Shown here: piece after piece, positions 3,692 through 64,000 of the stretch
How the letters are laid out: every line of letters begins with the position of its first letter
How positions within the stretch are numbered: the first letter of the stretch is position 1
Assembly: GCA_964516975.1 (NCBI GenBank)
Contig: CAZFAS010000001.1
Span: 118,500-182,499 of the forward strand
Source of the DNA: an uncultured Candidatus Saccharibacteria bacterium
Lineage (GTDB): Bacteria; Patescibacteriota; Minisyncoccia; Phycocordibacterales; Zambryskibacteraceae
Direction of reading: 5' to 3'
DNA length: 64,000 bases
The notes under the pieces: generated by a model
Database searches by the model: none
What the model saw: only the letters and a program-made list of their open reading frames with translations
What the model was told of the DNA's origin: nothing
Translations under genes and position numbers: made by a program

Positions 3692-4105
3692 TTATTTCTT
3701 GGCGATATTACTATACTTTGCCCAACAAGGGGACGAGGCAATCCAAGGACGAGCACCTTCCTTCTCATAGAGGTATCTGGCATAGGCCATATTCCCCTCT
3801 GTAGTGTAGATGTCGTAGCCGAGTTTTTTTGATTCCTCAAGGTGATACATTTCATTGATTTGCATCACCCCAACGTCATATCGATTGGCTACACCTCGGA
3901 ATATCTTCCCATTCTTATCAACTTGTCTGAAGTGTGATTCACATCGCGCAATGTCGATCATGATAGGAAGGTCAGAGAAATATTGATTTACTTTCTCCTC
4001 AACCGTAAGTGGAACCGATTCTTCAGTACTCTGGGTACTATCTGTAGAATAACTTAAGTTATCTGCAATCATACCGTTTGTATTGAAGCCTGAAACAACT
4101 GCCAA
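3692..4105 (-). CDS. lytic transglycosylase-like protein (SLT/lysozyme-like domain)
   Basis: motifs IARCESHFRQ ... GVMQIN typical of SLT domain; TTG start in track, hydrophobic signal-like segment just upstream in frame so true start uncertain. Confidence 0.5.
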   Translation of the reverse strand: MAVVSGFNTNGMIADNLSYSTDSTQSTEESVPLTVEEKVNQYFSDLPIMIDIARCESHFRQVDKNGKIFRGVANRYDVGVMQINEMYHLEESKKLGYDIYTTEGNMAYARYLYEKEGARPWIASSPCWAKYSNIAKK

Positions 4106-4557: not shown

Positions 4558-5046
4558 TCACATTACCTCACTTGATGATGGGGTGAATTTCGTGTGAAGC
4601 ATCCTGTGACGGGACATTTCCCATTCAGGTGTAGTCCCCAAGAATATCTTTGCACACAACTCCAAAGGATTCATGGGCAACCTTCGATTGATCTCTTGCA
4701 GGAATGCAACTCTATTTACTCCGTGGATAATAAAGACAGGCCCCTTAAGCGTGCATACCGGGCCGTTCATTTCAAACAATTCTCCCCGCATACCAAGCTC
4801 AATGTCAGGAAATGGCTCGAATATCGCAGTATCCTCGCTTTCTATTCCTGCCCTTAGAGCTTGCGACACTTTTCGCATCCAAAATACTTCAGGTAAAGCC
4901 TTACTTTGATACTGAGGATCAATTTGCAAAGAAGAAAGCGATCTACGATCAAGGACTCCGTATAGTGTCGCCATGCCATTTGGTGCCACAGCAACCGTTG
5001 GTCGAAACAACTTGACCTCTTCACAAACTGAAGTATCCATACCCAA
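4558..5046 (-). CDS. hypothetical protein, GC-rich island gene 1
   Basis: 162-aa ORF in ~55-60% GC segment; no family recognised. Confidence 0.4.
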   Translation of the reverse strand: MGMDTSVCEEVKLFRPTVAVAPNGMATLYGVLDRRSLSSLQIDPQYQSKALPEVFWMRKVSQALRAGIESEDTAIFEPFPDIELGMRGELFEMNGPVCTLKGPVFIIHGVNRVAFLQEINRRLPMNPLELCAKIFLGTTPEWEMSRHRMLHTKFTPSSSEVM

Positions 5047-5190
5047 TACCTGTTAAATGTTGAAAGAACTTTTACTCAAAAACATAGTACATCCAAGGTA
5101 AATTATTTCAAGCTATAAATATTGAAATATAAAATTGACCCCCAATCCGCCAAAGCAGACTGAGGGTCAAAGGGTCCAAGGGACAAAGGA

Positions 5191-6288: not shown

Positions 6289-6480
6289 ACTTGTATCAAT
6301 GAGGAAAGCTCGGCTGTGACGGACGAGGTCACAACGTGCCCATAATCAGGCTGCCCCCCTCTTTTCAAAATAGAATTAGAATAGAGTATAAAGAATACAG
6401 CAATTCTGTTTCAAAAAGATTGGAGGTTCCGATGATGTTATTTCAAAAAACTATATACTATTTATAACATATAAATTGGA

Positions 6481-7010
6481 AAAAGAAAACCCCGCACGCA
6501 AGCGTGCGGGGGTATGTGACAACTTGACTATAGTCCAATGGACATTCACTTGATCGTCACACACAGTTTCAGTACGAAGCAATCGTGTAATCGTCTTTCG
6601 ACAGTATGGGGATCGCTTCGCACCAAGATATGAGACATTGAGGTCTGCGTCTACACAAACAGAGAATCGTCTCATATCAAAAGAGCAGTTCGGGGGAAAA
6701 CATGAGCTGAAACGCTTTTACAAAGCACGAGAGCTCCCGTTCCAGTGACAAATACTACCTCGTAAATCAACATCTCGAATATCGTCACTTCCCCCTTTCT
6801 AAGTTACAGATATATAACCTAGAAAGGAGGCCCGACAAGCAAAGCTTGTCGGGCTTTGCAGAAAACATCAGTATTCTCGTTGTAAAACATTTTGACAATC
6901 GTCTTCTGCCAAAGCAAAATATCATTCTTTATATATAAGTCAACCCCCATACAAGCAAGCTTGTATGGGGGCGTGTGACAATGATTCGGTCGTCGTAGAG
7001 ACATCAAGTC
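6481..7010. repeat. structured direct-repeat unit A (3' of recombinase gene); similarity decays to ~7250
   Basis: ~80% identical to 8575-9190 with indels; contains three perfect hairpins (6489-6510, 6830-6854, 6944-6971) and terminator-like end on minus strand. Confidence 0.7.
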
Positions 7011-7250: not shown

Positions 7251-8441
7251 TTACACGACACTCCCTGCTTCGATCTTGCTCCACTCCTTGTAGAGCCACT
7301 CAGCAAACTTCGTCGCAGTCCTCCAGATCGCCATCTTGTGGATGTGACCCTTGGAGTATCGCTTCTTTCCATCTACCACTACTGGCTCAGGGTGACGGAC
7401 TGTGATCTGCGCCTTGATCTCTTTGAAACGAATACCCCATGGAGAATCAGGATTCTTGATGAACTGATCCATCAGAAGATACAAGCCCTGACGCACTTCT
7501 GCATTCCAGTTTGCGACCTGACCTCGCGAACGACGAGCAAGGCCGAAATTTCCATCCTTTCCCTTGCGAAGCCCGACGCCACAATACGACTTGAACTTGC
7601 TCTTATTCGGAAAGCGACGGACATCACCGATACCTGAGATGATTCGAGCTGCAATCTTGGGACCACAACCCTTCACCTCGGCAAGCACCTGAGTCCAGAT
7701 TGGAAAAAGGTCAAGTGTCTGTTCGACTGCCTTTGCGCAGCGAGCTTCTTCAGCAATGAGTGACTTCAAGGTAACATCATTTGCTTCCGCATCCTTGAGC
7801 CAAAGCTCAAGCGAACCCGCTTCGTACCAACCTTCACTGCTACAAAATATCTCGCCGATCACTCGTTGCTTCAGTCTCTGCTGACAGGCAATGCGTGCCT
7901 TACGAGCATCGACAAGACTGCGATACTTCCACTGAATCGAGATCAGATCTCGATCAGCAGGAGTCGTCTCAATGAAGTATTCAGGATTAGTAGCAAACAG
8001 ATCAATGAGTAGTCCCGCATCTTCATCCTTACTCCGCTCTTCTCGAGCAGACTTCAGATAAAATGCTGGAATACGCAAAACCTTTGCTCCAATCGATTGA
8101 CCGCGAAGCGAGAGCGCGTATGCGAAGTAATCCCCACTTCCACCAAGAGTCAAAAGCACTCGGTCTCCTGACCGCAAACCATCATACTCGGATGGAATCT
8201 TCCAACCGTTCTTTCCTTCACTGCGATGACTGATTTGAACATCAGAGGGAATACCCTCTTCATTTTCTACAGTCATCCACTTCACAGGAAATCTTCCGAC
8301 AAGAAAATCGTATTCATGAGACTCACTTTCAAGCTCATACACAGTTCGCTCTCCACCATGATCGATTACGATCTGTGTCGGCCTTGCTTCTCCATCTATA
8401 GTCTTCTTGACTCGATGACGAATTCCGATGAGGCGTCCCAC
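7251..8441 (-). CDS. IS110-family-like recombinase/transposase (Transposase_20-type C-terminal domain)
   Basis: C-terminal ...GCGPKIAARIISGIGDVRRFPNKSKFKSYCGVGLRKGKDGNFGLARRSRGQ matches IS110 HhH/Ser domain; GTG start preceded by AAGGAGAG SD; N-terminal domain atypical (IGIRH instead of IGID). Confidence 0.65.
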   Translation of the reverse strand: MGRLIGIRHRVKKTIDGEARPTQIVIDHGGERTVYELESESHEYDFLVGRFPVKWMTVENEEGIPSDVQISHRSEGKNGWKIPSEYDGLRSGDRVLLTLGGSGDYFAYALSLRGQSIGAKVLRIPAFYLKSAREERSKDEDAGLLIDLFATNPEYFIETTPADRDLISIQWKYRSLVDARKARIACQQRLKQRVIGEIFCSSEGWYEAGSLELWLKDAEANDVTLKSLIAEEARCAKAVEQTLDLFPIWTQVLAEVKGCGPKIAARIISGIGDVRRFPNKSKFKSYCGVGLRKGKDGNFGLARRSRGQVANWNAEVRQGLYLLMDQFIKNPDSPWGIRFKEIKAQITVRHPEPVVVDGKKRYSKGHIHKMAIWRTATKFAEWLYKEWSKIEAGSVV

Positions 8442-8574
8442 GTTACTCTCCTTGTAGAGGTTTCGTCCTGAAGGACATGGAAAGAACTGTCAGACAATCG
8501 TATACTCGTATGTAACATACATCAACGAGATAGTCTGACCAAATAAAAATACATACTATATTGAATTTGTCAAT

Positions 8575-24971: not shown

Positions 24972-24990
24972 CGGGCCCTTTTCTATTTCT
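24953..24990. terminator. bidirectional rho-independent terminator
   Basis: GGGCCCGCTacctaGCGGGCCC + TTTTCTATTTCT between convergent genes. Confidence 0.65.
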
Positions 24991-27709
24991 GATACTTTTT
25001 CATTATCTCACCCTCTATTTCGTACCTATCCCTTCCGAACTCCTGATATGAAAGTCGCTTGATCGTCTCAACATCCACATCAGTCTTCGGCGGTGGTGGC
25101 ATTGCCTTCATATTAAACGGCTTTACCGGTTTTCCATTGGCAAGCATTTTTACAAACGCATTGTAATTATCGATGTTTATTATTTCTGAAACAGAAAATA
25201 CAGGCTCAAACTGTTTTACAAGATATTCTGCATCATCAACCCCTACTCGATATGAAATTATAGTACCCACATTTCCAAACACGGCATTCTTGATATTCTC
25301 ATCGAGCTGTCCGATGAACTGATGTGCGATATAGAGAGATAAACGATATTTTCTCGCCTCCGAAAGGATCGTTGCAATAGATGGAGTGGTAATATTCTGA
25401 AACTCATCTATATAGAGATAAAATGGGGGGAAATCTTTTCCGAGCATATCCACTCGTGAAAGTGACGCCATAAGTATCTTTCCAACCAAGATAAGACCGA
25501 TGAGGTTTGCATTGATGTCTCCGAGTCTTCCCTTCGAAAGATTCACGAGGAGGATTTTCTTATTATCCATAATATCGCGGAAGTTAAACGAAGATTTCTC
25601 CTGCGCGATAATCGGACGCATGATCTCATTTGCGAGGAATACATCGAACTTACTTGTGATATATGGCACGATATTTGCAAGAGCTCCTTCCCCGCCAGCT
25701 TTTTCTGCAACTTCATTCCAAAATTGTACGACGATCGGATTTCGACATCGCGATAATTTGAGCTGTCTAAATTCTTTATTTGCGAGCACACGAGAAACAT
25801 CGAGGAGCGTTGAACCCGACTCAGGGTCCTCGATCACGAGCATCGTCGCGTTTCTAAAATACTGTTCGAACATTGGCCCCATTGATTCTGGTACTGCTCC
25901 ATACAGTTTTTGGAAAATACTAAAAAGCTCATTCACTACAAAAGTTTTTTGCTCCGGAAAACGATAATCATACTCGAGCATATTGAGTGCCATCGGCCTA
26001 TCAATAAATGCTGGATCAAAATAGATAACATCTTTCATTCGCTCTGGTGGGACATGTGCTAATACATCCTGAACATCCGATCCATGCGGATCGATCATAC
26101 ATACACCATTACCACGTTCGATGTCCTGAATAATCATATTCTTAAGGAGTGTGGTCTTACCAGTACCTGTTTGTCCGATCGTGTATACATGGCGAAGTCT
26201 ATCTTCATCAGTCAAATACACCTTTGTATCTTGGCCGCGATATGAGTTCACTCCGATAAGGGTTCCAAGCTCAGGAAGCTCATGCGGTGCTGGGGCATAC
26301 CCACTCTTTGCTACCTTGAGCTGACTTGCTCCCTTGAGGGCACTTGTGTGGAAGTGGATAAGAGTAGTGAGTTCTTTAATATTGAGTGGGATAAAATCTG
26401 CCCAATCAAAAGCTCGAAATGCAAATGATCTTATAAACTTCTTCAGCTTTCCACCATTACTGATTCGTGAAAATCGAATACCATTACCCTGCGTCTCATC
26501 GAACTGATTAAAACTCGATTCAAGATCAGCTAAAATACTTTCCGCTCGGTTCTTATCACCGGCAGAAACTACGATCCGAATATTGATAGCACAAATAGGA
26601 CTGCTTAATTTTTTCTGAATTTTTTCTATTGCCTGAGTATCGACTTTCTTCTCTTCTTTTTTTTCATCTTTCTTAGTAGCGCCAAATATAGATTTAAATG
26701 TCTTACCGAGCTCTGTCACAAAAGAATTTTCAGCAGTTGCTTCCTTAGCAGACATGCCTTTTTCTATCTTTTTTATTGCTGATTCATATTTCTGCTTGTA
26801 CGTATCACCCACAGGTCCCATCATCACCTGAAGACATGCTCCCTCACCTTCCTTTTGAATCTTCGAAAAACTATTGAGGATTACATTGAGCGGATCATGA
26901 TCAAAAGACTCATATGTACGCATTTGAAATGCTGGATTTCCGTTCGAATACCCTACTGAACCAAGTGACACGCCTTCTTGGTTGAAGATATTATGATCAT
27001 CATTTTTCTCTGTAACTCGCGCATCATGAAAAATAGATAGGATTTGTTTTTCAAATAAATCCTTTCGTTCATCTGGTACCGCAACATAAAAAATAAACTC
27101 ATCACTACCATTACTATTTGCGATTTCAAGAGTAATATAATCTCGTTTATTATATTCATCACCAGAAATGGATGTCATACCGGCATAAAACTGCTCCATA
27201 CCAGAGATAAGCTCTTTTAACCCTCTTTGCTGTTCATCAGATCCTTGCGGAAGTACTACTTCATAAAGTGTCATGCGAAGTGCTCGTGAAAGTGGAGCTC
27301 TTGTGGGTAATCCTTTAACTTCAAAACCTTTTTTTACATACTGCACGAGAAATCGATGGAAATCATCTTCGACATGAACATCGCCAAGCTTTTCGATAAT
27401 AGCTAAAGTATTCTTTATCCCCTTTTGATTGAGCAAAATTAAAAGTTCATCCATTTTCTTGTCATGTGGTTCAGGAGAAAGATTGAGCGCAAGCGCATGG
27501 ATTGTGTCTTGTGTAAGCGCATGATGAGCATGCAAGATAGTATGAGGCTGTAAATTGTATTCTTTAAGTTTCTCTCCGATAACCTTATCCCGCGAAACTT
27601 CGTTTCCTGATTCACGGAGGAAACGTTCCTGTTTCAATACTTCATTTTTAATATGAGAAATTTCCTCTTCTTTTGTCCGAAGTGATTCCAATCTTGTTTC
27701 TGGTTCCAT
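24983..27709 (-). CDS. large P-loop ATPase of HerA/FtsK/TraD(VirD4)-like superfamily with ~480-aa N-terminal domain of unknown function
   Basis: Walker A GQTGTGKTT then MIDPHGSDV (HerA/AAA_10-like); Walker B ...YLYIDEFQN; C-terminal TraD/TraG-like region. Confidence 0.7.
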   Translation of the reverse strand: MEPETRLESLRTKEEEISHIKNEVLKQERFLRESGNEVSRDKVIGEKLKEYNLQPHTILHAHHALTQDTIHALALNLSPEPHDKKMDELLILLNQKGIKNTLAIIEKLGDVHVEDDFHRFLVQYVKKGFEVKGLPTRAPLSRALRMTLYEVVLPQGSDEQQRGLKELISGMEQFYAGMTSISGDEYNKRDYITLEIANSNGSDEFIFYVAVPDERKDLFEKQILSIFHDARVTEKNDDHNIFNQEGVSLGSVGYSNGNPAFQMRTYESFDHDPLNVILNSFSKIQKEGEGACLQVMMGPVGDTYKQKYESAIKKIEKGMSAKEATAENSFVTELGKTFKSIFGATKKDEKKEEKKVDTQAIEKIQKKLSSPICAINIRIVVSAGDKNRAESILADLESSFNQFDETQGNGIRFSRISNGGKLKKFIRSFAFRAFDWADFIPLNIKELTTLIHFHTSALKGASQLKVAKSGYAPAPHELPELGTLIGVNSYRGQDTKVYLTDEDRLRHVYTIGQTGTGKTTLLKNMIIQDIERGNGVCMIDPHGSDVQDVLAHVPPERMKDVIYFDPAFIDRPMALNMLEYDYRFPEQKTFVVNELFSIFQKLYGAVPESMGPMFEQYFRNATMLVIEDPESGSTLLDVSRVLANKEFRQLKLSRCRNPIVVQFWNEVAEKAGGEGALANIVPYITSKFDVFLANEIMRPIIAQEKSSFNFRDIMDNKKILLVNLSKGRLGDINANLIGLILVGKILMASLSRVDMLGKDFPPFYLYIDEFQNITTPSIATILSEARKYRLSLYIAHQFIGQLDENIKNAVFGNVGTIISYRVGVDDAEYLVKQFEPVFSVSEIINIDNYNAFVKMLANGKPVKPFNMKAMPPPPKTDVDVETIKRLSYQEFGRDRYEIEGEIMKKYQK

Positions 27710-32427: not shown

Positions 32428-32562
32428 GTGCGCTCCAGGTTAAAGAACTGACAATATAGTAGCATATTATATACAAAATGTCAATCTACATTATCGTGGC
32501 TAATTACACTTTATAAAATCAAGTAGATTTTTTGCTATATTTTGCTATTCTTCATTCCACAT

Positions 32563-32610
32563 GGCCCTATCGTCTAACGGTCATGATTGGACTCTCAAGC
32601 GCTTAAGAGG
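32563..32610 (+). pseudogene. degenerate 5' fragment of a tRNA-Glu-like gene
   Basis: first 19 nt identical to tRNA-Glu at 32744, D and anticodon stems no longer pair. Confidence 0.45.
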
Positions 32611-32629
32611 GGTGAGAAGCGAACACTTG

Positions 32630-32720
32630 GAGCTTCGCAAGACCGGAGCGCGACGGCGCGAGGTATGGTCAGGAGCAAAGTCAGCAGACTTTGACTCATG
32701 ACCGATGAACCGGAATCGGG
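32630..32720 (+). repeat. GC-rich structured repeat E1
   Basis: ~80-nt similarity to 32880-32977 incl. CGCG-ACGG-CGCG hairpin and AAAGTC-agca-GACTTT stem. Confidence 0.5.
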
Positions 32721-32743
32721 TTTTAATAATTTATGTTTATATT

Positions 32744-32818
32744 GGCCCTATCGTCTAACGGTTAGGACAAGGCCTTCTCAAGGCTTAAATCGGGGTTCGA
32801 TTCCCCGTAGGGTCACCA
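32744..32818 (+). tRNA. tRNA-Glu (anticodon CUC), CCA encoded
   Basis: cloverleaf: acceptor GGCCCTA/TAGGGTC, D GTCT/GGAC, anticodon loop TTCTCAA, T arm CGGGG-TTCGATT-CCCCG, discriminator A. Confidence 0.85.
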
Positions 32819-32879
32819 AATATTACGAAGTAATATGTGTGATTTTTAAACACGCTGGGAGCTTGTTTAAAAAGAATCG

Positions 32880-32977
32880 AAAGCCGGAGCGCGACGGCGC
32901 GAGGCGGGGTCGCGAGCAAAGTTAGCAAACTTTGACTTGTGACCGAAGCGTACTCGCGTTTCCCCGTAGGGTCACCA
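32880..32977 (+). repeat. GC-rich structured repeat E2
   Basis: partner of E1; stem AAAGTT-agca-AACTTT shows compensatory C>T/G>A change relative to E1. Confidence 0.5.
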
Positions 32978-32995
32978 ATCGAAACCTTTTACATT
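32978..32995 (+). other. duplicated 3' end of tRNA (TTCCCCGTAGGGTCACCA), att-core-like
   Basis: 18 nt identical to 3' end of tRNA-Glu at 32801-32818. Confidence 0.5.
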
Positions 32996-60335: not shown

Positions 60336-60467
60336 ACCCCCTATCATACGCGATACCGTACTGTGCTCAACAGTACTTTTGATTTTCAAAAGATATCTGA
60401 TATTATCTTTCTGTTCTGCTAAAACAGAACCATTCCGGAGTAGCTCAGTGGTAGAGCGATCGCCTGT

Positions 60468-61027
60468 GTCGGAAAGTTCGTGGTATAATTGCTTGGTGTA
60501 TACCAAGAAAAAAAGATTAGAAAAATGAACTTACGCCGACCGTCGAGCATATATGGTAATGGCAGTAACAAGGAGAAGAAGAAAACTCCGTGAGATGGCC
60601 AGAGAACAAGCCGGCGGAAAATGTGCATTATGTGGCTACAAAAAATGTCAGAGGGCTTTAAGCTTTCATCACGTAAACCCTAAAAATAAGGATTTTGATC
60701 TTTCTTCAAGGGGTTTAACGAGATCGTGGGAACGTATTAAAAAGGAAATCGAAAAATGCGTTCTCTTGTGTGCAAATTGTCACATGGAAGTACATGAAGG
60801 CATTACGCAGCTTTCTATCAAAAGATAGATTGAAAAACGAGGTGAATTCGGGGAAACCCAATTATTGGGCAATCCCGAGCCAAGCTCTAATGAAAGTTGG
60901 AGAAGGTGTAGAGACTATCCTTTATGGAGTAGTGTCAAAAACTTGATACGAAGCGCCTCGATCCTAAGTTCCAGATTGGAATATGGATATGATATAGTCC
61001 ACGCTTCTAGCAATAGAAGAATCAGTG
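60468..61027 (+). mobile_element. group I intron (560 nt) with internal HNH homing-endonuclease ORF
   Basis: 5' exon ends in U, intron ends in G; conserved core elements P (AATTCGGGGAAA), Q (AATCCCGAGC), R (GTAGAGACTATCC), S (GATATAGTCCAC). Confidence 0.7.
60553..60828 (+). CDS. HNH endonuclease (intron-encoded)
   Basis: CxxC...HH..N...CxxCH zinc/HNH motif (CALCGY...SFHHVNPKNK...CANCHMEVH); extended -10 TGGTATAAT at 60477. Confidence 0.75.
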   Translation: MVMAVTRRRRKLREMAREQAGGKCALCGYKKCQRALSFHHVNPKNKDFDLSSRGLTRSWERIKKEIEKCVLLCANCHMEVHEGITQLSIKR

Positions 61028-61079
61028 TAAGCGATTGGTCGTAGGTTCGATCCCTACCTCCGGAGCATGCAAAAATCTT

Positions 61080-61112
61080 AGGCCGTCAGAAATGACGGTC
61101 TTTGATTTTTTA
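61080..61112 (+). terminator. rho-independent terminator after tRNA-Asn
   Basis: GGCCGTCAgaaaTGACGGTC + TTTGATTTTTT. Confidence 0.6.
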
Positions 61113-61294
61113 TGCTCAGGAGAGCAAAGCCTGCGCGCTTTGTGTGCAGGGATCGAACGGCGGAATGTGAAATTTTCAGTAGAAAATTTCCATGAGCCTG
61201 TGCCCAGACTTTTTTTGTATTGACTATTTGTATATTTTGTGATAGTAATTATCCAGTACTGTTCAATCAACTAAACAAGAGAGCGAGGTAACAA

Positions 61295-61612
61295 ATGGCG
61301 ACGAGCAAGACACAGGATATCAAGACTTTCAAGAATCAAACCGGATACTGGGAGCATGATGGAGCATTTTCCGTCGAACTGACACCCAGTGCCGACAAGA
61401 GCATCGTACCGCCAAACGCAGAGATCCGAGTCGACACAGTTCATGTGAGACACGGACGCATCAAACAAACGATTGGTGGTATCCAGCTCTACTCGGAAGG
61501 TAGCCCCCTTTCTACTGGGGCTACGCACACATCAAGATCATTCGCGACGGAAGCGGCAATCTCCTGTGGGTCAACCATAACTACAGATAAGTTTCACCTC
61601 TCCACCGCCTGA
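61295..61612 (+). CDS. hypothetical protein (moron-like array gene 1)
   Basis: promoter TTGACT-17-TAGTAAT, GAGG SD; 105 aa; TGA stop. Confidence 0.4.
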   Translation: MATSKTQDIKTFKNQTGYWEHDGAFSVELTPSADKSIVPPNAEIRVDTVHVRHGRIKQTIGGIQLYSEGSPLSTGATHTSRSFATEAAISCGSTITTDKFHLSTA

Positions 61613-61650
61613 CAGAAGCCGTTCGCTTCTGTGGGCGGTTTTCTTTTGTT
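61603..61650 (+). terminator. terminator (variant of repeated CCGCC...GGCGG cassette)
   Basis: CCGCC-tgaCAGAAGCcgttcGCTTCTGtg-GGCGG + TTTTCTTTTG. Confidence 0.55.
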
Positions 61651-61677
61651 TGACAAATTATATAAATGTGTTAATAT
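61650..61677 (+). promoter_or_regulatory. promoter TTGACA-16-TAATAT fused to terminator T-run
   Basis: repeated cassette. Confidence 0.5.
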
Positions 61678-61709
61678 GTTAACAGTACCTTCAAACAATC
61701 GAGGTGATC

Positions 61710-61997
61710 ATGTCGAAGAAGCAAGGTATGAAAAAACCTCTTCGGTCTTGGACCATTCTGCTCAATGAGCAGAACATCCGAGCTCGAATCGAGAAGGAAG
61801 AACCAGGAATGCTGAAATTCCTGGACTTCCTTGCGAGTAAGGAAAAGGTTCCGATGCAAGCTGGTCTTGTTGGATGGTCAGTGTTCACACACTGGCTCTC
61901 TTGTGCTTACAAGTACCTGAAGCACAGACCATCTGATGTTCCCTACTACAGCGACAATGCTGTGCTCGATGTGGTTTTCCCCGCAAGTAAGAGGTAA
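61710..61997 (+). CDS. hypothetical protein (array gene 2)
   Basis: GAGGTGAT SD; start MSKKQGMKK (track start 61704). Confidence 0.4.
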   Translation: MSKKQGMKKPLRSWTILLNEQNIRARIEKEEPGMLKFLDFLASKEKVPMQAGLVGWSVFTHWLSCAYKYLKHRPSDVPYYSDNAVLDVVFPASKR

Positions 61998-61998
61998 A

Positions 61999-62211
61999 AT
62001 GAAAATCCAGTGCGTATTGTTTAGTGGAACGGTCTCTGATGTCGAGTTGTTCAACAACGGCACATCTGCAAGTGTGACCGTAACCACACCACTTTCGACT
62101 CCCTGTGGAACTCTATACTTTCCAGTCGGCCAAAGGATTCAGTTCAGCAGAGTCCTAATCGAAGGAGACACGATTGTTCCTCAGAGCGGAGGAAGTATCT
62201 CCGTTCTCTAG
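61999..62211 (+). CDS. hypothetical protein (array gene 3, 70 aa)
   Basis: AAGAGG SD, start MKIQCVLFSG abutting previous stop (track gives longer 61936 start). Confidence 0.4.
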   Translation: MKIQCVLFSGTVSDVELFNNGTSASVTVTTPLSTPCGTLYFPVGQRIQFSRVLIEGDTIVPQSGGSISVL

Positions 62212-62222
62212 AAAGTTCACCG

Positions 62223-62252
62223 CCGCCCACACTGTGGGCGGTTTTCTTTTGT
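62223..62252 (+). terminator. terminator of repeated cassette
   Basis: CCGCCCACAcTGTGGGCGG + TTTTCTTTTG then TTGACA. Confidence 0.6.
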
Positions 62253-62320
62253 TTGACAGTTTTATATATATGTGATATTTTTTCAACAGATTATCGTTCC
62301 CTTCTCACCCATGAGGACTC

Positions 62321-62698
62321 ATGCCAGAAGATATATTTGCTGAAGTTCCTGAATTTCTCGCAGCATTTCAGAACATTCGAGAAAATGGCTTCTTTGAGAG
62401 CATGGATTTCAAAGTGGGCGGTGAGCAATTAGAAGGAAAGGTTGCGCATTTCTATATCCGCGCTGTAGGGTGTATTCCAAATAATCCAGACTTCATGGCT
62501 ATTGGTTGTGACGAAATCATCGATCCAGACAGAATCATCAATTCATGTCGAGCTCTTGTAAAACTGAGGAAAGTAAAGTCTGTACAGGTTAAAGTTGAAA
62601 CAGATGAATGGCCAAAATGGAACCGATCCGGCACGGAGATAACTGGAAGTAAAGGTAGACGCACAATTCTTTCGCTTTCAGTTCAGTTTAAGATATAG
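62321..62698 (+). CDS. hypothetical protein (array gene 4)
   Basis: 125-aa ORF. Confidence 0.4.
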   Translation: MPEDIFAEVPEFLAAFQNIRENGFFESMDFKVGGEQLEGKVAHFYIRAVGCIPNNPDFMAIGCDEIIDPDRIINSCRALVKLRKVKSVQVKVETDEWPKWNRSGTEITGSKGRRTILSLSVQFKI

Positions 62699-62708
62699 AA
62701 TAATCACA

Positions 62709-62739
62709 CCGCCCACACTGTGGGCGGTTTTCTTTTGTT
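62709..62739 (+). terminator. terminator of repeated cassette
   Basis: CCGCCCACAcTGTGGGCGG + TTTTCTTTTG then TTGACA-16-TAATGT. Confidence 0.6.
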
Positions 62740-62793
62740 TGACAAAAACATGAATTATTCTAATGTTATCGCAGAACTTTCACCAAGGTAACC

Positions 62794-63081
62794 GTGCAGA
62801 AAGATACCAGCACGAATCATCCTGAACAGAAAGATGGAGAAGTGTTCATTGGAAACTTCTTGAATAAGTCACCAGAAATCCCAACTGAGGGGATACTCAT
62901 CGACCCCTTCGACAGAGTTGGTTGGAAAACAAAGCGAGCTGGAATGGTTGCGTATGACCACAATGGCAACACCCTTCCGGACTGCTTCCCTGTTTTTGTA
63001 CTGAGGTCAGAAATGAGAGAATCAGGAATGGATCCCGATTCATTGTGGTTAAAAAAACCAGAGGAGAACCGCGATGTCTGA
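62794..63081 (+). CDS. hypothetical protein (array gene 5)
   Basis: 95-aa ORF; TGA stop. Confidence 0.4.
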   Translation: MQKDTSTNHPEQKDGEVFIGNFLNKSPEIPTEGILIDPFDRVGWKTKRAGMVAYDHNGNTLPDCFPVFVLRSEMRESGMDPDSLWLKKPEENRDV

Positions 63082-63328
63082 GATTGTGACTCAAGCTGAA
63101 TTGAGGTTTGAAGATCGAACTGAATGCAACCATTTTTTCAAATGGGATCCAGAATCAAAACATTGGAAGACCACTCGTGGGCAAACTATTTTCGTTTGCC
63201 CACCAAGTAGCATATGTAAAAGATGGGTAGTCATCTGGCCTAGCAACAACAAAAGAAAGGAAATCCACAGCCAAAATCCGGAATTCGCAGCATTTAGCGA
63301 AGCGGATCTCTGGTCAAGAAGAAAGTAA
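63074..63328 (+). CDS. hypothetical protein (array gene 6)
   Basis: 84 aa, start overlaps previous stop (ATGTCTGA). Confidence 0.4.
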   Translation: MSEIVTQAELRFEDRTECNHFFKWDPESKHWKTTRGQTIFVCPPSSICKRWVVIWPSNNKRKEIHSQNPEFAAFSEADLWSRRK

Positions 63329-63345
63329 GTATACAAACCGCCAAG

Positions 63346-63372
63346 TAGCAAATAGCGAACGGCGGTTTTTCA
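63346..63372 (+). terminator. rho-independent terminator
   Basis: ACCGCC-(18 nt loop)-GGCGGT + TTTTT. Confidence 0.45.
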
Positions 63373-63428
63373 TTGATATTCATTAAATAATGAAGTGATG
63401 TATACTATTTATATTAATCAAAAACACT

Positions 63429-63776
63429 ATGCCATTCGAAAAACCAACGCAAGTATTTGAAAAATATGAGGAAGAAGCAAATGCGCTATTACCTGAAATT
63501 ACAGATCGTATCAAGGATGCGCTCATTGGAAAAAGGGTGACACTCATGGACTATTCTAGAAATAAGGAAGAAACAGTGACGGTAAGGCAGGCTGACCCTG
63601 AGAGTTCGAATTGGATGTACATACGTGAGGATGGTCTCAACCATTCATTCACTACTACATTTCGTAGTATTGTACTCAGCACAGAAGGAAGAAAAATTAT
63701 GAATGAAATCGTCGATGGTCTATCTGTACATAACGAAGTAAAAAAAATATTAAAAGAAAAAATTACAGCTCGATAG
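63429..63776 (+). CDS. hypothetical protein (array gene 7)
   Basis: 115-aa ORF. Confidence 0.4.
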   Translation: MPFEKPTQVFEKYEEEANALLPEITDRIKDALIGKRVTLMDYSRNKEETVTVRQADPESSNWMYIREDGLNHSFTTTFRSIVLSTEGRKIMNEIVDGLSVHNEVKKILKEKITAR

Positions 63777-63777
63777 C

Positions 63778-64000
63778 ATGAAAATAATAAAACTCTTTGA
63801 TCGATTAGAGGATCGTGTCCGTGGTTGGCTCAGTAAACGCCCTATTCTGTATGCACTCATTGGTGGATTTGCTATTGTCCTCTTTTGGAGAGGAGTCTGG
63901 GATTTCGCAGATGAATTCGCATTTCTCACGCCAGTAGTATCAATCGTAATCAGTGTCCTTATAATGATGGCAACTGGTACATTCGTATCATTCTTCATTG
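63778..64000 (+). CDS. hypothetical membrane protein (3' partial, runs off window)
   Basis: MKIIKLFDRLEDRVRGWLSKRPILYALIGGFAIVLFW... two TM segments, no stop before window end. Confidence 0.4.
   Translation, partial: MKIIKLFDRLEDRVRGWLSKRPILYALIGGFAIVLFWRGVWDFADEFAFLTPVVSIVISVLIMMATGTFVSFFI

Follow-up and report, generated by a model that had tools for sequence, protein, structure and literature searches.

Eight co-oriented small open reading frames (ORFs; designated A to H) occupy 61.07 to 64.0 kb of a 64-kb stretch of DNA (i.e., the window; contig CAZFAS010000001.1, positions 118,500 to 182,499) from the chromosome of an ultra-small cellular bacterium of the Patescibacteria. Gene content was read from the called genes of identical public contigs. 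These cover the window at approximately 13 to 49 kb and again from approximately 50 kb onward, and they extend 5.4 kb past its end. Housekeeping genes are found throughout these annotated stretches (e.g., those for ribosomal proteins, DnaB, CysS, PBP, Mur ligase, MraZ, ClpP, MreB, PriA, Def, Fmt, and HPF). The neighbors of the array are PriA, Def, Fmt, HPF, and tRNA-Asn at one end and H, J, VanY, and MsrA/B at the other. An earlier reading of the DNA (here, the original prediction) described these small genes as phage morons or hypervariable cargo, each framed by a near-identical terminator-promoter cassette. Our analyses identify the region as an islet of autonomous small-gene modules that lies beside a tRNA gene and varies between strains, in a chromosome of the Candidate Phyla Radiation, and not as phage morons. 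Its most interesting aspect is the repeated terminator-promoter sequence, which is similar in design to the promoter-early stem-loop (PeSL) elements of T4-type phages (Arbiol et al. 2010, PMC2839356; Comeau et al. 2014, PMC4122927).

Small genes and repeated cassettes of the array

Exactly three copies of the 25-mer GTGGGCGGTTTTCTTTTGTTTGACA are present in the 64 kb (at 61631, 62234, and 62720; plus strand), and none appeared in 100 dinucleotide-preserving shuffles, so that no chance copies are expected. The second and third copies are identical over 36 nucleotides (CCGCCCACACTGTGGGCGGTTTTCTTTTGTTTGACA; 62223 to 62258 and 62709 to 62744), and the stretch common to the first copy measures 27 to 29 nucleotides (i.e., the 3' arm, T-tract, and -35 box). 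Each copy is part of a cassette in which a stable, GC-rich terminator hairpin is followed by a U-tract and, directly after that, by a TTGACA -35 box (Table 1). In RNA, the hairpin is followed by UUUUCUUUUGUUU, and the folding energies of copies 1 to 3 are -24.6, -17.2, and -16.9 kcal/mol (z, -3.6 to -5.5). A consensus scan placed putative -10 boxes 16 to 17 nucleotides past TTGACA (i.e., TAATAT with TG, TATTTT with TG, and TAATGT). Past the core, alignments between the copies mostly scored no better than those of unrelated promoters (z, 1.4 to 3.0, versus up to 3.8 in the controls), the exception being P_B against P_D (z, 5.7). Homology of the promoter/leader halves, with the promoter of A included, was accordingly rejected except for this pair.

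The cassette is located at only three of the seven gene junctions (A/B, C/D, and D/E, i.e., upstream of B, D, and E). Translational coupling is evident for B-C (1-nucleotide gap), E-F (8-nucleotide overlap), and G-H (8-nucleotide overlap). On the basis of these coupled pairs together with the cassette and terminator junctions, the eight genes are assigned to five predicted transcription units (A, B-C, D, E-F, and G-H). A terminator followed within a few bases by TTGAC(A/T) is also present at 19.70 and 28.70 kb and, on the minus strand, at 8.6 and 41.5 kb, with unrelated stems in each case; the terminator at 58.07 kb lacks a clear -35 box. Since the fused terminator-promoter design recurs elsewhere with unrelated stems, it is a general style of this compact genome, and the special feature of the array is the sequence identity of the three copies.

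For every array ORF, the annotated frame had the best codon-usage score among the six frames. The scores of A, B, C, and F were under the 5th percentile of native 300-nucleotide gene fragments. The G+C content of A (51.6%), B (47.6%), C (47.9%), and E (45.8%) exceeds that of long native genes (approximately 40%), and the G+C content at third codon positions (GC3) of these four genes is 0.48 to 0.55, versus 0.33 in native genes; D and G are native-like. The array proteins had no match in Pfam, PHROG, PADLOC (defense models), or NCBIfam, and a PDB sequence search with the A and G profiles was likewise negative. No homologues of B and D were found in a word-indexed search of 5.8 billion proteins, and all-against-all BLASTP of the array proteins detected no paralogy. 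Weak matches of G to Ig-repeat proteins were judged noninformative, and a single-sequence AlphaFold2 model of D (predicted local distance difference test score, 55) was not used.

These results bear out several claims of the original prediction, namely, the seven small ORFs (A to G, the last overlapping its neighbor H), the three cassettes at the positions given, the elevated G+C content of several genes, and, by consensus scanning and folding, a putative promoter and terminator for each unit. Others stand in part. Framing by the cassette holds for the three junctions named above, the remaining ones being coupled pairs or, at F/G, an unrelated terminator-promoter. The claimed recurrence of the design (a terminator with a T-tract and then TTTGACA) was found at 19.7 and 28.7 kb but not clearly at 58.1 kb. 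Finally, the statement that the genes match no known family agrees with the searches of family databases, but metagenomes contain 18 clusters of homologues of A and a few homologues of G.

Variation and conservation at the tRNA-Asn end

The tRNA-Asn(GUU) gene directly upstream of the array (60434 to 61067) contains an intron, as originally described. Its anticodon loop is split by a group I intron of approximately 556 nucleotides (RF00028 match, 60768 to 61020) that encodes a 91-amino-acid HNH endonuclease ORF (60553 to 60828); ARAGORN fails to call the intron-split gene. Exact-protein look-ups retrieved more than 40 contigs of the region from JGI, ENA, Logan, and NCBI, and two haplotypes were distinguished, the first being that of the window. 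In the second (contigs L006, L017, L019, L020, and L027), genes A to D and cassettes 1 and 2 are replaced by an insert of approximately 1.54 kb that carries genes for a GNAT acetyltransferase (G+C content, 29%) and two proteins designated X1 (118 amino acids) and X2 (124 amino acids). Haplotype 2 is 99.4 to 100% identical to the window up to 61067 (the last tRNA base) and 98.8 to 99.8% identical from 62709 (the first base of the cassette 3 hairpin). The breakpoints of the replacement are thus the 3' end of tRNA-Asn on the left and the 5' edge of cassette 3 on the right. Cassette 3 is predicted to serve in haplotype 2 as the X2 terminator and the E promoter. The paired small genes B-C, E-F, and X1-X2 resemble toxin-antitoxin or effector-immunity pairs in size and layout, a resemblance only.

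All alternative contexts break at 61063 to 61067. In three contigs (L003, L005, and L035), the array is connected at 61063 to other DNA, a 5-nucleotide microhomology (GAGCA) being all that is shared, and another (L041, from the same sample as L005) stops at the tRNA 3' end, where the next base differs. Some of the DNA found next to the tRNA in these contigs is partly mobile-element-like. The joined segment of L003 (1 to 1190) encodes a DUF305 protein and a CsoR-type repressor, and that of L035 (1 to 2148) carries a type III restriction-modification methylase fragment, an HTH_17 protein gene, and unknown genes. Both segments end in a related stretch of approximately 130 bp (85% identical) with a possible 43-amino-acid ORF. 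Because haplotype 2 and these four contigs differ from the window at this position, the tRNA 3' end is a recurrent junction and the 1.64-kb block from A to D is dispensable.

Genes at the right end of the array are conserved. Homologues of H occur in 44 further Patescibacteria loci (38 to 69% identity; two additional partial matches, 33 to 34%, bring the loci to 46), and the order H-J-VanY is kept in L051. In the relative L043, G (45% identity), H (93%), and I (47 to 62%) are syntenic, which indicates that G, with a few homologues in metagenomes, is fast evolving but inherited. Gene I, located past the window end, varied in length among the contigs; this was a mere gene-calling difference, the DNA being identical. 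Single nucleotide polymorphisms among the contigs were 7 nonsynonymous and 2 synonymous in E to H, versus 2 and 16 in VanY plus MsrB; the counts are low but would fit a weak constraint on these genes. At the left end, an A-family gene is located directly after tRNA-Asn in three divergent genomes (the window, L049, and L044). The array is therefore not uniformly cargo, given that H is a core gene, G-H-I is syntenic, and the succession of tRNA-Asn and A recurs. A wider synteny scan of GTDB species representatives through Fmt was dropped, as the best match (49% identity, in a metagenome-assembled genome of the Patescibacteria) left no close genome. The original prediction had proposed comparing relatives for presence or absence of the genes, with conserved synteny counting against hypervariable cargo. 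In the comparison, A to D were swapped for GNAT-X1-X2 and other DNA adjoined the tRNA gene at its 3' end, and the cargo claim is supported for that block; it does not extend to H, G-H-I, or the position of A, where the synteny is conserved.

Gene A belongs to a family of proteins of approximately 97 amino acids, of which 18 homologue clusters (49 to 79% identity to A) were found in metagenomes. Compared with these 18 homologues, A is frameshifted by a 2-nucleotide insertion within 61504 to 61511 (adjacent C5 and T3 runs). The family-type C terminus (PFYWGY..LLWVNHNYR) sits in the +2 frame with its stop codon at 61588 to 61590, and the shifted ORF extends into its terminator, as far as the 5' arm. 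Since the frameshifted 105-amino-acid product is present on 19 contigs, A is a fixed pseudogene rather than a sequencing error. Among the relatives, L049 has the same split tRNA-Asn (3732 to 4000) with an intron of approximately 200 nucleotides that lacks an ORF, and the tRNA-Asn of L044 is intron-less. Exon 2 of the L049 gene occurs twice just before the A homologue (3962 to 4000 and 4059 to 4097; 92% identical, 97 nucleotides apart), and the second, degenerate copy looks like an attachment site (att)-type scar. In L046 to L048, the A homologue is instead located within a small-gene region, and that of L046 lies approximately 3.5 kb from a large serine recombinase beside tRNA-Ala.

The terminators of the A homologues provide clues about the origin of the cassette. 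That of L049 shares the stem base and tail with cassette 1 (CCGCCCAC...GGGCGGTTTTC(A/T)TTTTG), and that of L046 shares the apex (AGAAGCCGTT.GGCTCT). Because base, tail, and apex are common to these terminators, the comparison shows that the hairpin and U-tract of the cassette descend from the native terminator of the A-family gene, cassette 1 being the orthologue of that terminator fused to a promoter. Cassettes 2 and 3 have the same hairpin with the 15-nucleotide apex cut to one base. The A terminator was thus copied twice downstream, with TTGACA after each copy. Immediately downstream of its A homologue, L049 has its own 46-nucleotide terminator-plus-promoter repeat (4608 to 4653 and 5046 to 5091; 87% identical), which brackets a gene for an 85-amino-acid membrane protein. 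Its sequence is unrelated to that of the window cassette; the same design recurs.

Table 1. Coordinates of the array genes, predicted regulatory sequences, and variable block in the window
Feature	Position	Strand	Description
tRNA-Asn(GUU) exon 2 and 3' end	61023..61067	+	Acceptor, T-arm, and anticodon loop CU-GUU-AA assigned from sequence; left boundary of the variable block
Strain-variable block, haplotype 1	61068..62708	.	A, B, C, D, and cassettes 1 and 2; approximately 1.54 kb of GNAT-X1-X2 in haplotype 2
Predicted terminator hairpin after tRNA	61080..61112	+	AGGCCGTCAGAAATGACGGTCT, then T-run; fold -19.6 kcal/mol, z -7.4
Putative promoter of A	61220..61248	+	TTGACT, 17 nucleotides, TAGTAA, with TG ahead of it; leader kept in the L049 homologue
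Gene A	61295-61612	+	Frameshifted member of a family of approximately 97 amino acids
Cassette 1	61604..61677	+	Long hairpin 61604-61639, U-tract, -35 TTGACA 61650-61655, putative -10 TAATAT 61672-61677
Gene B	61710-61997	+	95 amino acids; no homologue besides itself; GC3 0.54
Gene C	61999-62211	+	70 amino acids; Shine-Dalgarno AAGAGGT; uncalled by public pipelines; GC3 0.51
Cassette 2	62222..62281	+	Hairpin 62222-62242, core 62223-62258, -35 62253-62258, putative -10 TATTTT 62276-62281
Gene D	62321-62698	+	125 amino acids; no homologue found; native-like codon usage
Cassette 3	62708..62766	+	Hairpin 62708-62728, core 62709-62744, -35 62739-62744, putative -10 TAATGT 62761-62766
Gene E	62794-63081	+	GTG start, 95 amino acids; present in both haplotypes
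Gene F	63074-63328	+	84 amino acids; present in both haplotypes
F/G junction	63335..63428	+	Weaker hairpin ACCGCC..GGCGGT, then TTTTTCATTGATA; -13.7 kcal/mol; same design, unrelated to the cassette copies
Gene G	63429-63776	+	115 amino acids; fast-evolving; 45% identity in relative L043
Gene H	63769 onward, past the window end	+	127-amino-acid membrane/coiled-coil protein; conserved core gene

A proposed recombination role for the cassettes and its alternatives

We regard it as about an even chance that the interval from tRNA-Asn(GUU) to H is a flexible chromosomal islet of self-contained small-protein expression modules in which the cassette repeats act as recombination anchors. As judged from promoter consensus and folding, each cassette would stop upstream transcription and, approximately 10 nucleotides later, recruit a sigma-70-type RNA polymerase, so that the units would be insulated and independently expressed. 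The hairpin and U-tract derive from the A-family terminator, with copies 2 and 3 as apex-deleted versions. The copies may then serve as transferable stretches of homology through which units are gained, lost, or swapped, by homologous or Campbell-type exchange and possibly following DNA uptake. Such a role is plausible. Since the flanked units are unrelated and the identity ends sharply after TTGACA, the copies point to recombination rather than gene duplication; tandem gene duplication cannot explain the repeats, because the array proteins show no paralogy. Recombination at a shared site yields direct repeats with sharp edges around unrelated inserts, a pattern that fits the array. In the sole replacement seen between strains, the right breakpoint coincides exactly with a cassette and the left one with the 3' end of the tRNA gene. 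The pseudogene status of A is consistent with dispensable cargo that turns over.

The closest parallel is with PeSLs, composite sigma-70 promoter/stem-loop repeats that flank genes without a known function in the hyperplastic regions of T4-type phages, where their recombination accounts for insertions and deletions between close relatives and gives mini-circles (PMC2839356; PMC4122927). Both their architecture and their recombination logic are documented experimentally (PMC2839356; PMC4122927). Like PeSLs, the cassette combines within one motif a predicted sigma-70-like promoter with an A/T-rich tract and a terminator stem-loop, is repeated in a plastic region between small genes without a known function, and is predicted to provide start and stop signals to each shuffled gene; its stem-loop lies upstream of the -35 box, as in one PeSL subclass. 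For PeSLs, the ends of insertions, deletions, or replacements between close relatives coincide with the motif; in the array, the right breakpoint of one replacement falls at the 5' edge of cassette 3. In contrast to PeSLs, the cassettes are found in a cellular chromosome without phage genes, bear no sequence relationship to PeSLs, are not in a T4-type phage genome, and number 3 in 1.1 kb rather than approximately 50 per phage genome. Promoter and terminator activity and mini-circles have been demonstrated for PeSLs in phages, whereas the cassettes are known from sequence.

Other mobile systems are comparable in part. PMC1797815 describes the minimal mobile elements of Neisseria (Saunders & Snyder 2002) as alternative genes at one syntenic site, and the array is similar to them in that unrelated sets of one to four genes lie between conserved flanks with no mobility gene in the exchanged segment. 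Here, A to D and GNAT-X1-X2 alternate between tRNA-Asn and E. The flanks differ from those given in that account, being a tRNA 3' end and a 36-nucleotide regulatory repeat rather than long conserved genes, and the transformation-mediated exchange of the Neisseria type is only presumed here. As in tRNA-linked genomic islands and flexible islets, the 3' end of the tRNA gene marks exactly where the variable content begins, and subpopulations have other DNA attached at that point; unlike such islands, the block is tiny (1.6 kb), and no integrase or att direct repeat was found.

Several observations weigh against a role of the cassettes in exchange. Further copies were found neither elsewhere in the window nor in approximately 840 kb of fetched loci, so the cassette appears to be a local triplication and not a genome-wide system. 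Only one replacement event is available, and the coincidence of its breakpoint with a cassette has an n of 1; a breakpoint at that position is also expected if selection merely kept the E promoter. No contig was found with a clean single-unit deletion (D or B-C) between two cassettes, and the starts of five Logan contigs within cassette 3 may represent assembly breaks at a repeat rather than variation. The identical core of 27 to 36 nucleotides is far shorter than the approximately 100 bp over which PeSLs are conserved, and 36 nucleotides is near the minimum for homologous recombination (i.e., minimal processing segments). In addition, the terminator and promoter activities are predictions, and atypical G+C content is no proof of recent transfer.

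Much of the evidence is also compatible with decayed cargo of integrative elements that targeted tRNA-Asn, which we consider rather unlikely; A to D and GNAT-X1-X2 would then be leftovers, and the repeated terminator would be a by-product of rearrangement without a role in exchange. The exact abutment of the block on the tRNA 3' end, the HTH_17 gene and methylase fragment (L035) and the CsoR and DUF305 genes (L003) joined there, the recombinase near the A homologue of L046, the degenerate exon 2 before that of L049, and the pseudogene status of A in the window all favor this explanation. However, no recombinase Pfam match was obtained among the called genes from approximately 50 to 69 kb (window-equivalent), no integrase was found within approximately 10 kb on either side of the array, and the window, contig L001, and the 8.3 kb downstream contain no further copy of the tRNA 3' end even when 3 mismatches are allowed. 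The sequence left of the L003/L035 junction was rejected as a decayed tRNA 3' end (attR; P = 0.13 to 0.19), and only the GAGCA microhomology is left there. Cargo decay also leaves unexplained the identical, sharp-edged 36-nucleotide repeats around unrelated units. Phage morons are extra prophage genes with their own promoter and terminator, and the array is similar to them in its predicted autonomous units inserted between other genes, in its small genes for which no homologues were found, and in its proximity to a tRNA gene; the composition of A, B, C, and E is atypical, and that of D and G is native-like. It nevertheless lies outside any phage genome, and an origin from a prophage or prophage remnant is very unlikely. 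No phage gene, virion genes and integrases included, was found among the called genes at approximately 13 to 49 kb, at 50 to 64 kb, or over a further 5.4 kb past its end, where the original prediction had suggested looking for integrase or structural genes. The only PHROGs match was to the HNH protein of the intron, and the vertically conserved core genes H and J-VanY interleave with the array. The array DNA had no blastn match in 50,697 phage records and no match in plasmid records. IMG/VR scans for the cassette (0 matches) and for A, D, and E were empty; JGI metagenome contigs also gave 0 matches for the cassette, in a collection that missed known cassette-bearing JGI contigs and appears not to hold this species.

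Two further explanations take the palindromes themselves as the mobile feature. A selfish palindrome spreading into intergenic regions and terminating transcription incidentally, in the manner of repetitive extragenic palindromes or miniature inverted-repeat transposable elements, would account for a 19-nucleotide palindrome with a perfect stem, intergenic 3' positions, and identical copies. It is highly improbable in view of the confinement of all three copies to 1.1 kb in one orientation, their absence from the rest of the window and the fetched loci, the extension of the repeat over the nonpalindromic T-tract and -35 box, and the orthology of the hairpin with the A-family terminator. Elements of the REP/REPIN type are marked by numerous copies scattered over the genome and by a RAYT transposase. 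Least credible, to the point of being a marginal case, is an integron-like array whose palindromes are attC sites recombined by an integrase. The array has small, unrelated, co-oriented genes separated by palindromes, and the GTTTGAC that follows the hairpin agrees with 6 of the 7 positions of GTTRRRY. Integron attC sites, however, are imperfect palindromes of 57 to 141 bp with paired core sites, and integron cassettes are promoterless; the palindromes here measure 19 to 36 nucleotides, are identical, and lack paired core sites, each unit has its own predicted promoter, and no tyrosine recombinase was found among the called genes within approximately 10 kb, whereas integrons have an adjacent intI with attI.

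If the cassettes do mediate exchange, the mechanism proposed for phage hyperplastic regions would also operate in cellular genomes of the Candidate Phyla Radiation, in which gene flux and the origin of many unique genes are poorly understood. The interval from tRNA-Asn to H would then be a concrete hotspot, testable by polymerase chain reaction, for strain-level gene turnover in natural populations. A more general possibility, which we hold to be doubtful, is that Patescibacteria use PeSL-like linkers as portable anchors, with single-gene modules excised (possibly as mini-circles), taken up, and reinserted at tRNA-proximal hotspots. Such anchors would give ultra-small genomes a low-risk means of sampling new genes and would be a cellular counterpart of the modular shuffling that the cited literature describes only for T4-type phages. 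If the cassette is merely an insulator, the region is a clean but ordinary example of tRNA-proximal microdiversity.

Other features of the window and its surroundings

Between the tRNA terminator and the promoter of A (61100 to 61215), an AT-rich hairpin with a perfect 9-bp stem (GAAATTTTC-AGTA-GAAAATTTC) can form, as can alternative pairings that are GC-rich. Past the window end, H is followed by I (171 amino acids), J (220 amino acids; minus strand), and K (66 amino acids) and then by VanY, DUF4342, MsrB, and MsrA. K has a sub-threshold match to TrbC/VirB2 pilins (E = 0.0026). The lipoprotein gene I (L001, 8540 to 9093; window-equivalent, approximately 64257 to 64810) has a G+C content of 61% and a GC3 of 0.74 in a genome of 40% G+C. 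Its homologue region in L043 is likewise GC-rich by eye, and high G+C content near the array is therefore not by itself evidence of recent transfer.

The first 13 kb or so of the window contain an IS110-family transposase gene (7251 to 8441, minus strand; Transposase_20, E = 2.6e-8) bracketed by direct repeats of approximately 520 to 620 bp (6473 to 6993 and 8564 to 9184; 90 to 96% identity), which carry many terminator hairpins and promoter-like sites. A 908-amino-acid ATPase (24983 to 27709, minus strand) with a DUF8128 match and weaker or faint TraG-D_C, DUF87, and T4SS-DNA_transf matches is encoded amid housekeeping genes. Around tRNA-Glu (32744 to 32818), several segments of 22 to 63 nucleotides are duplicated at spacings of 159 to 241 nucleotides (32560 to 32980). 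One of these duplicates is a copy of the tRNA 5' end (32562 to 32586), which could belong to a degenerate or undetected second tRNA-like gene.

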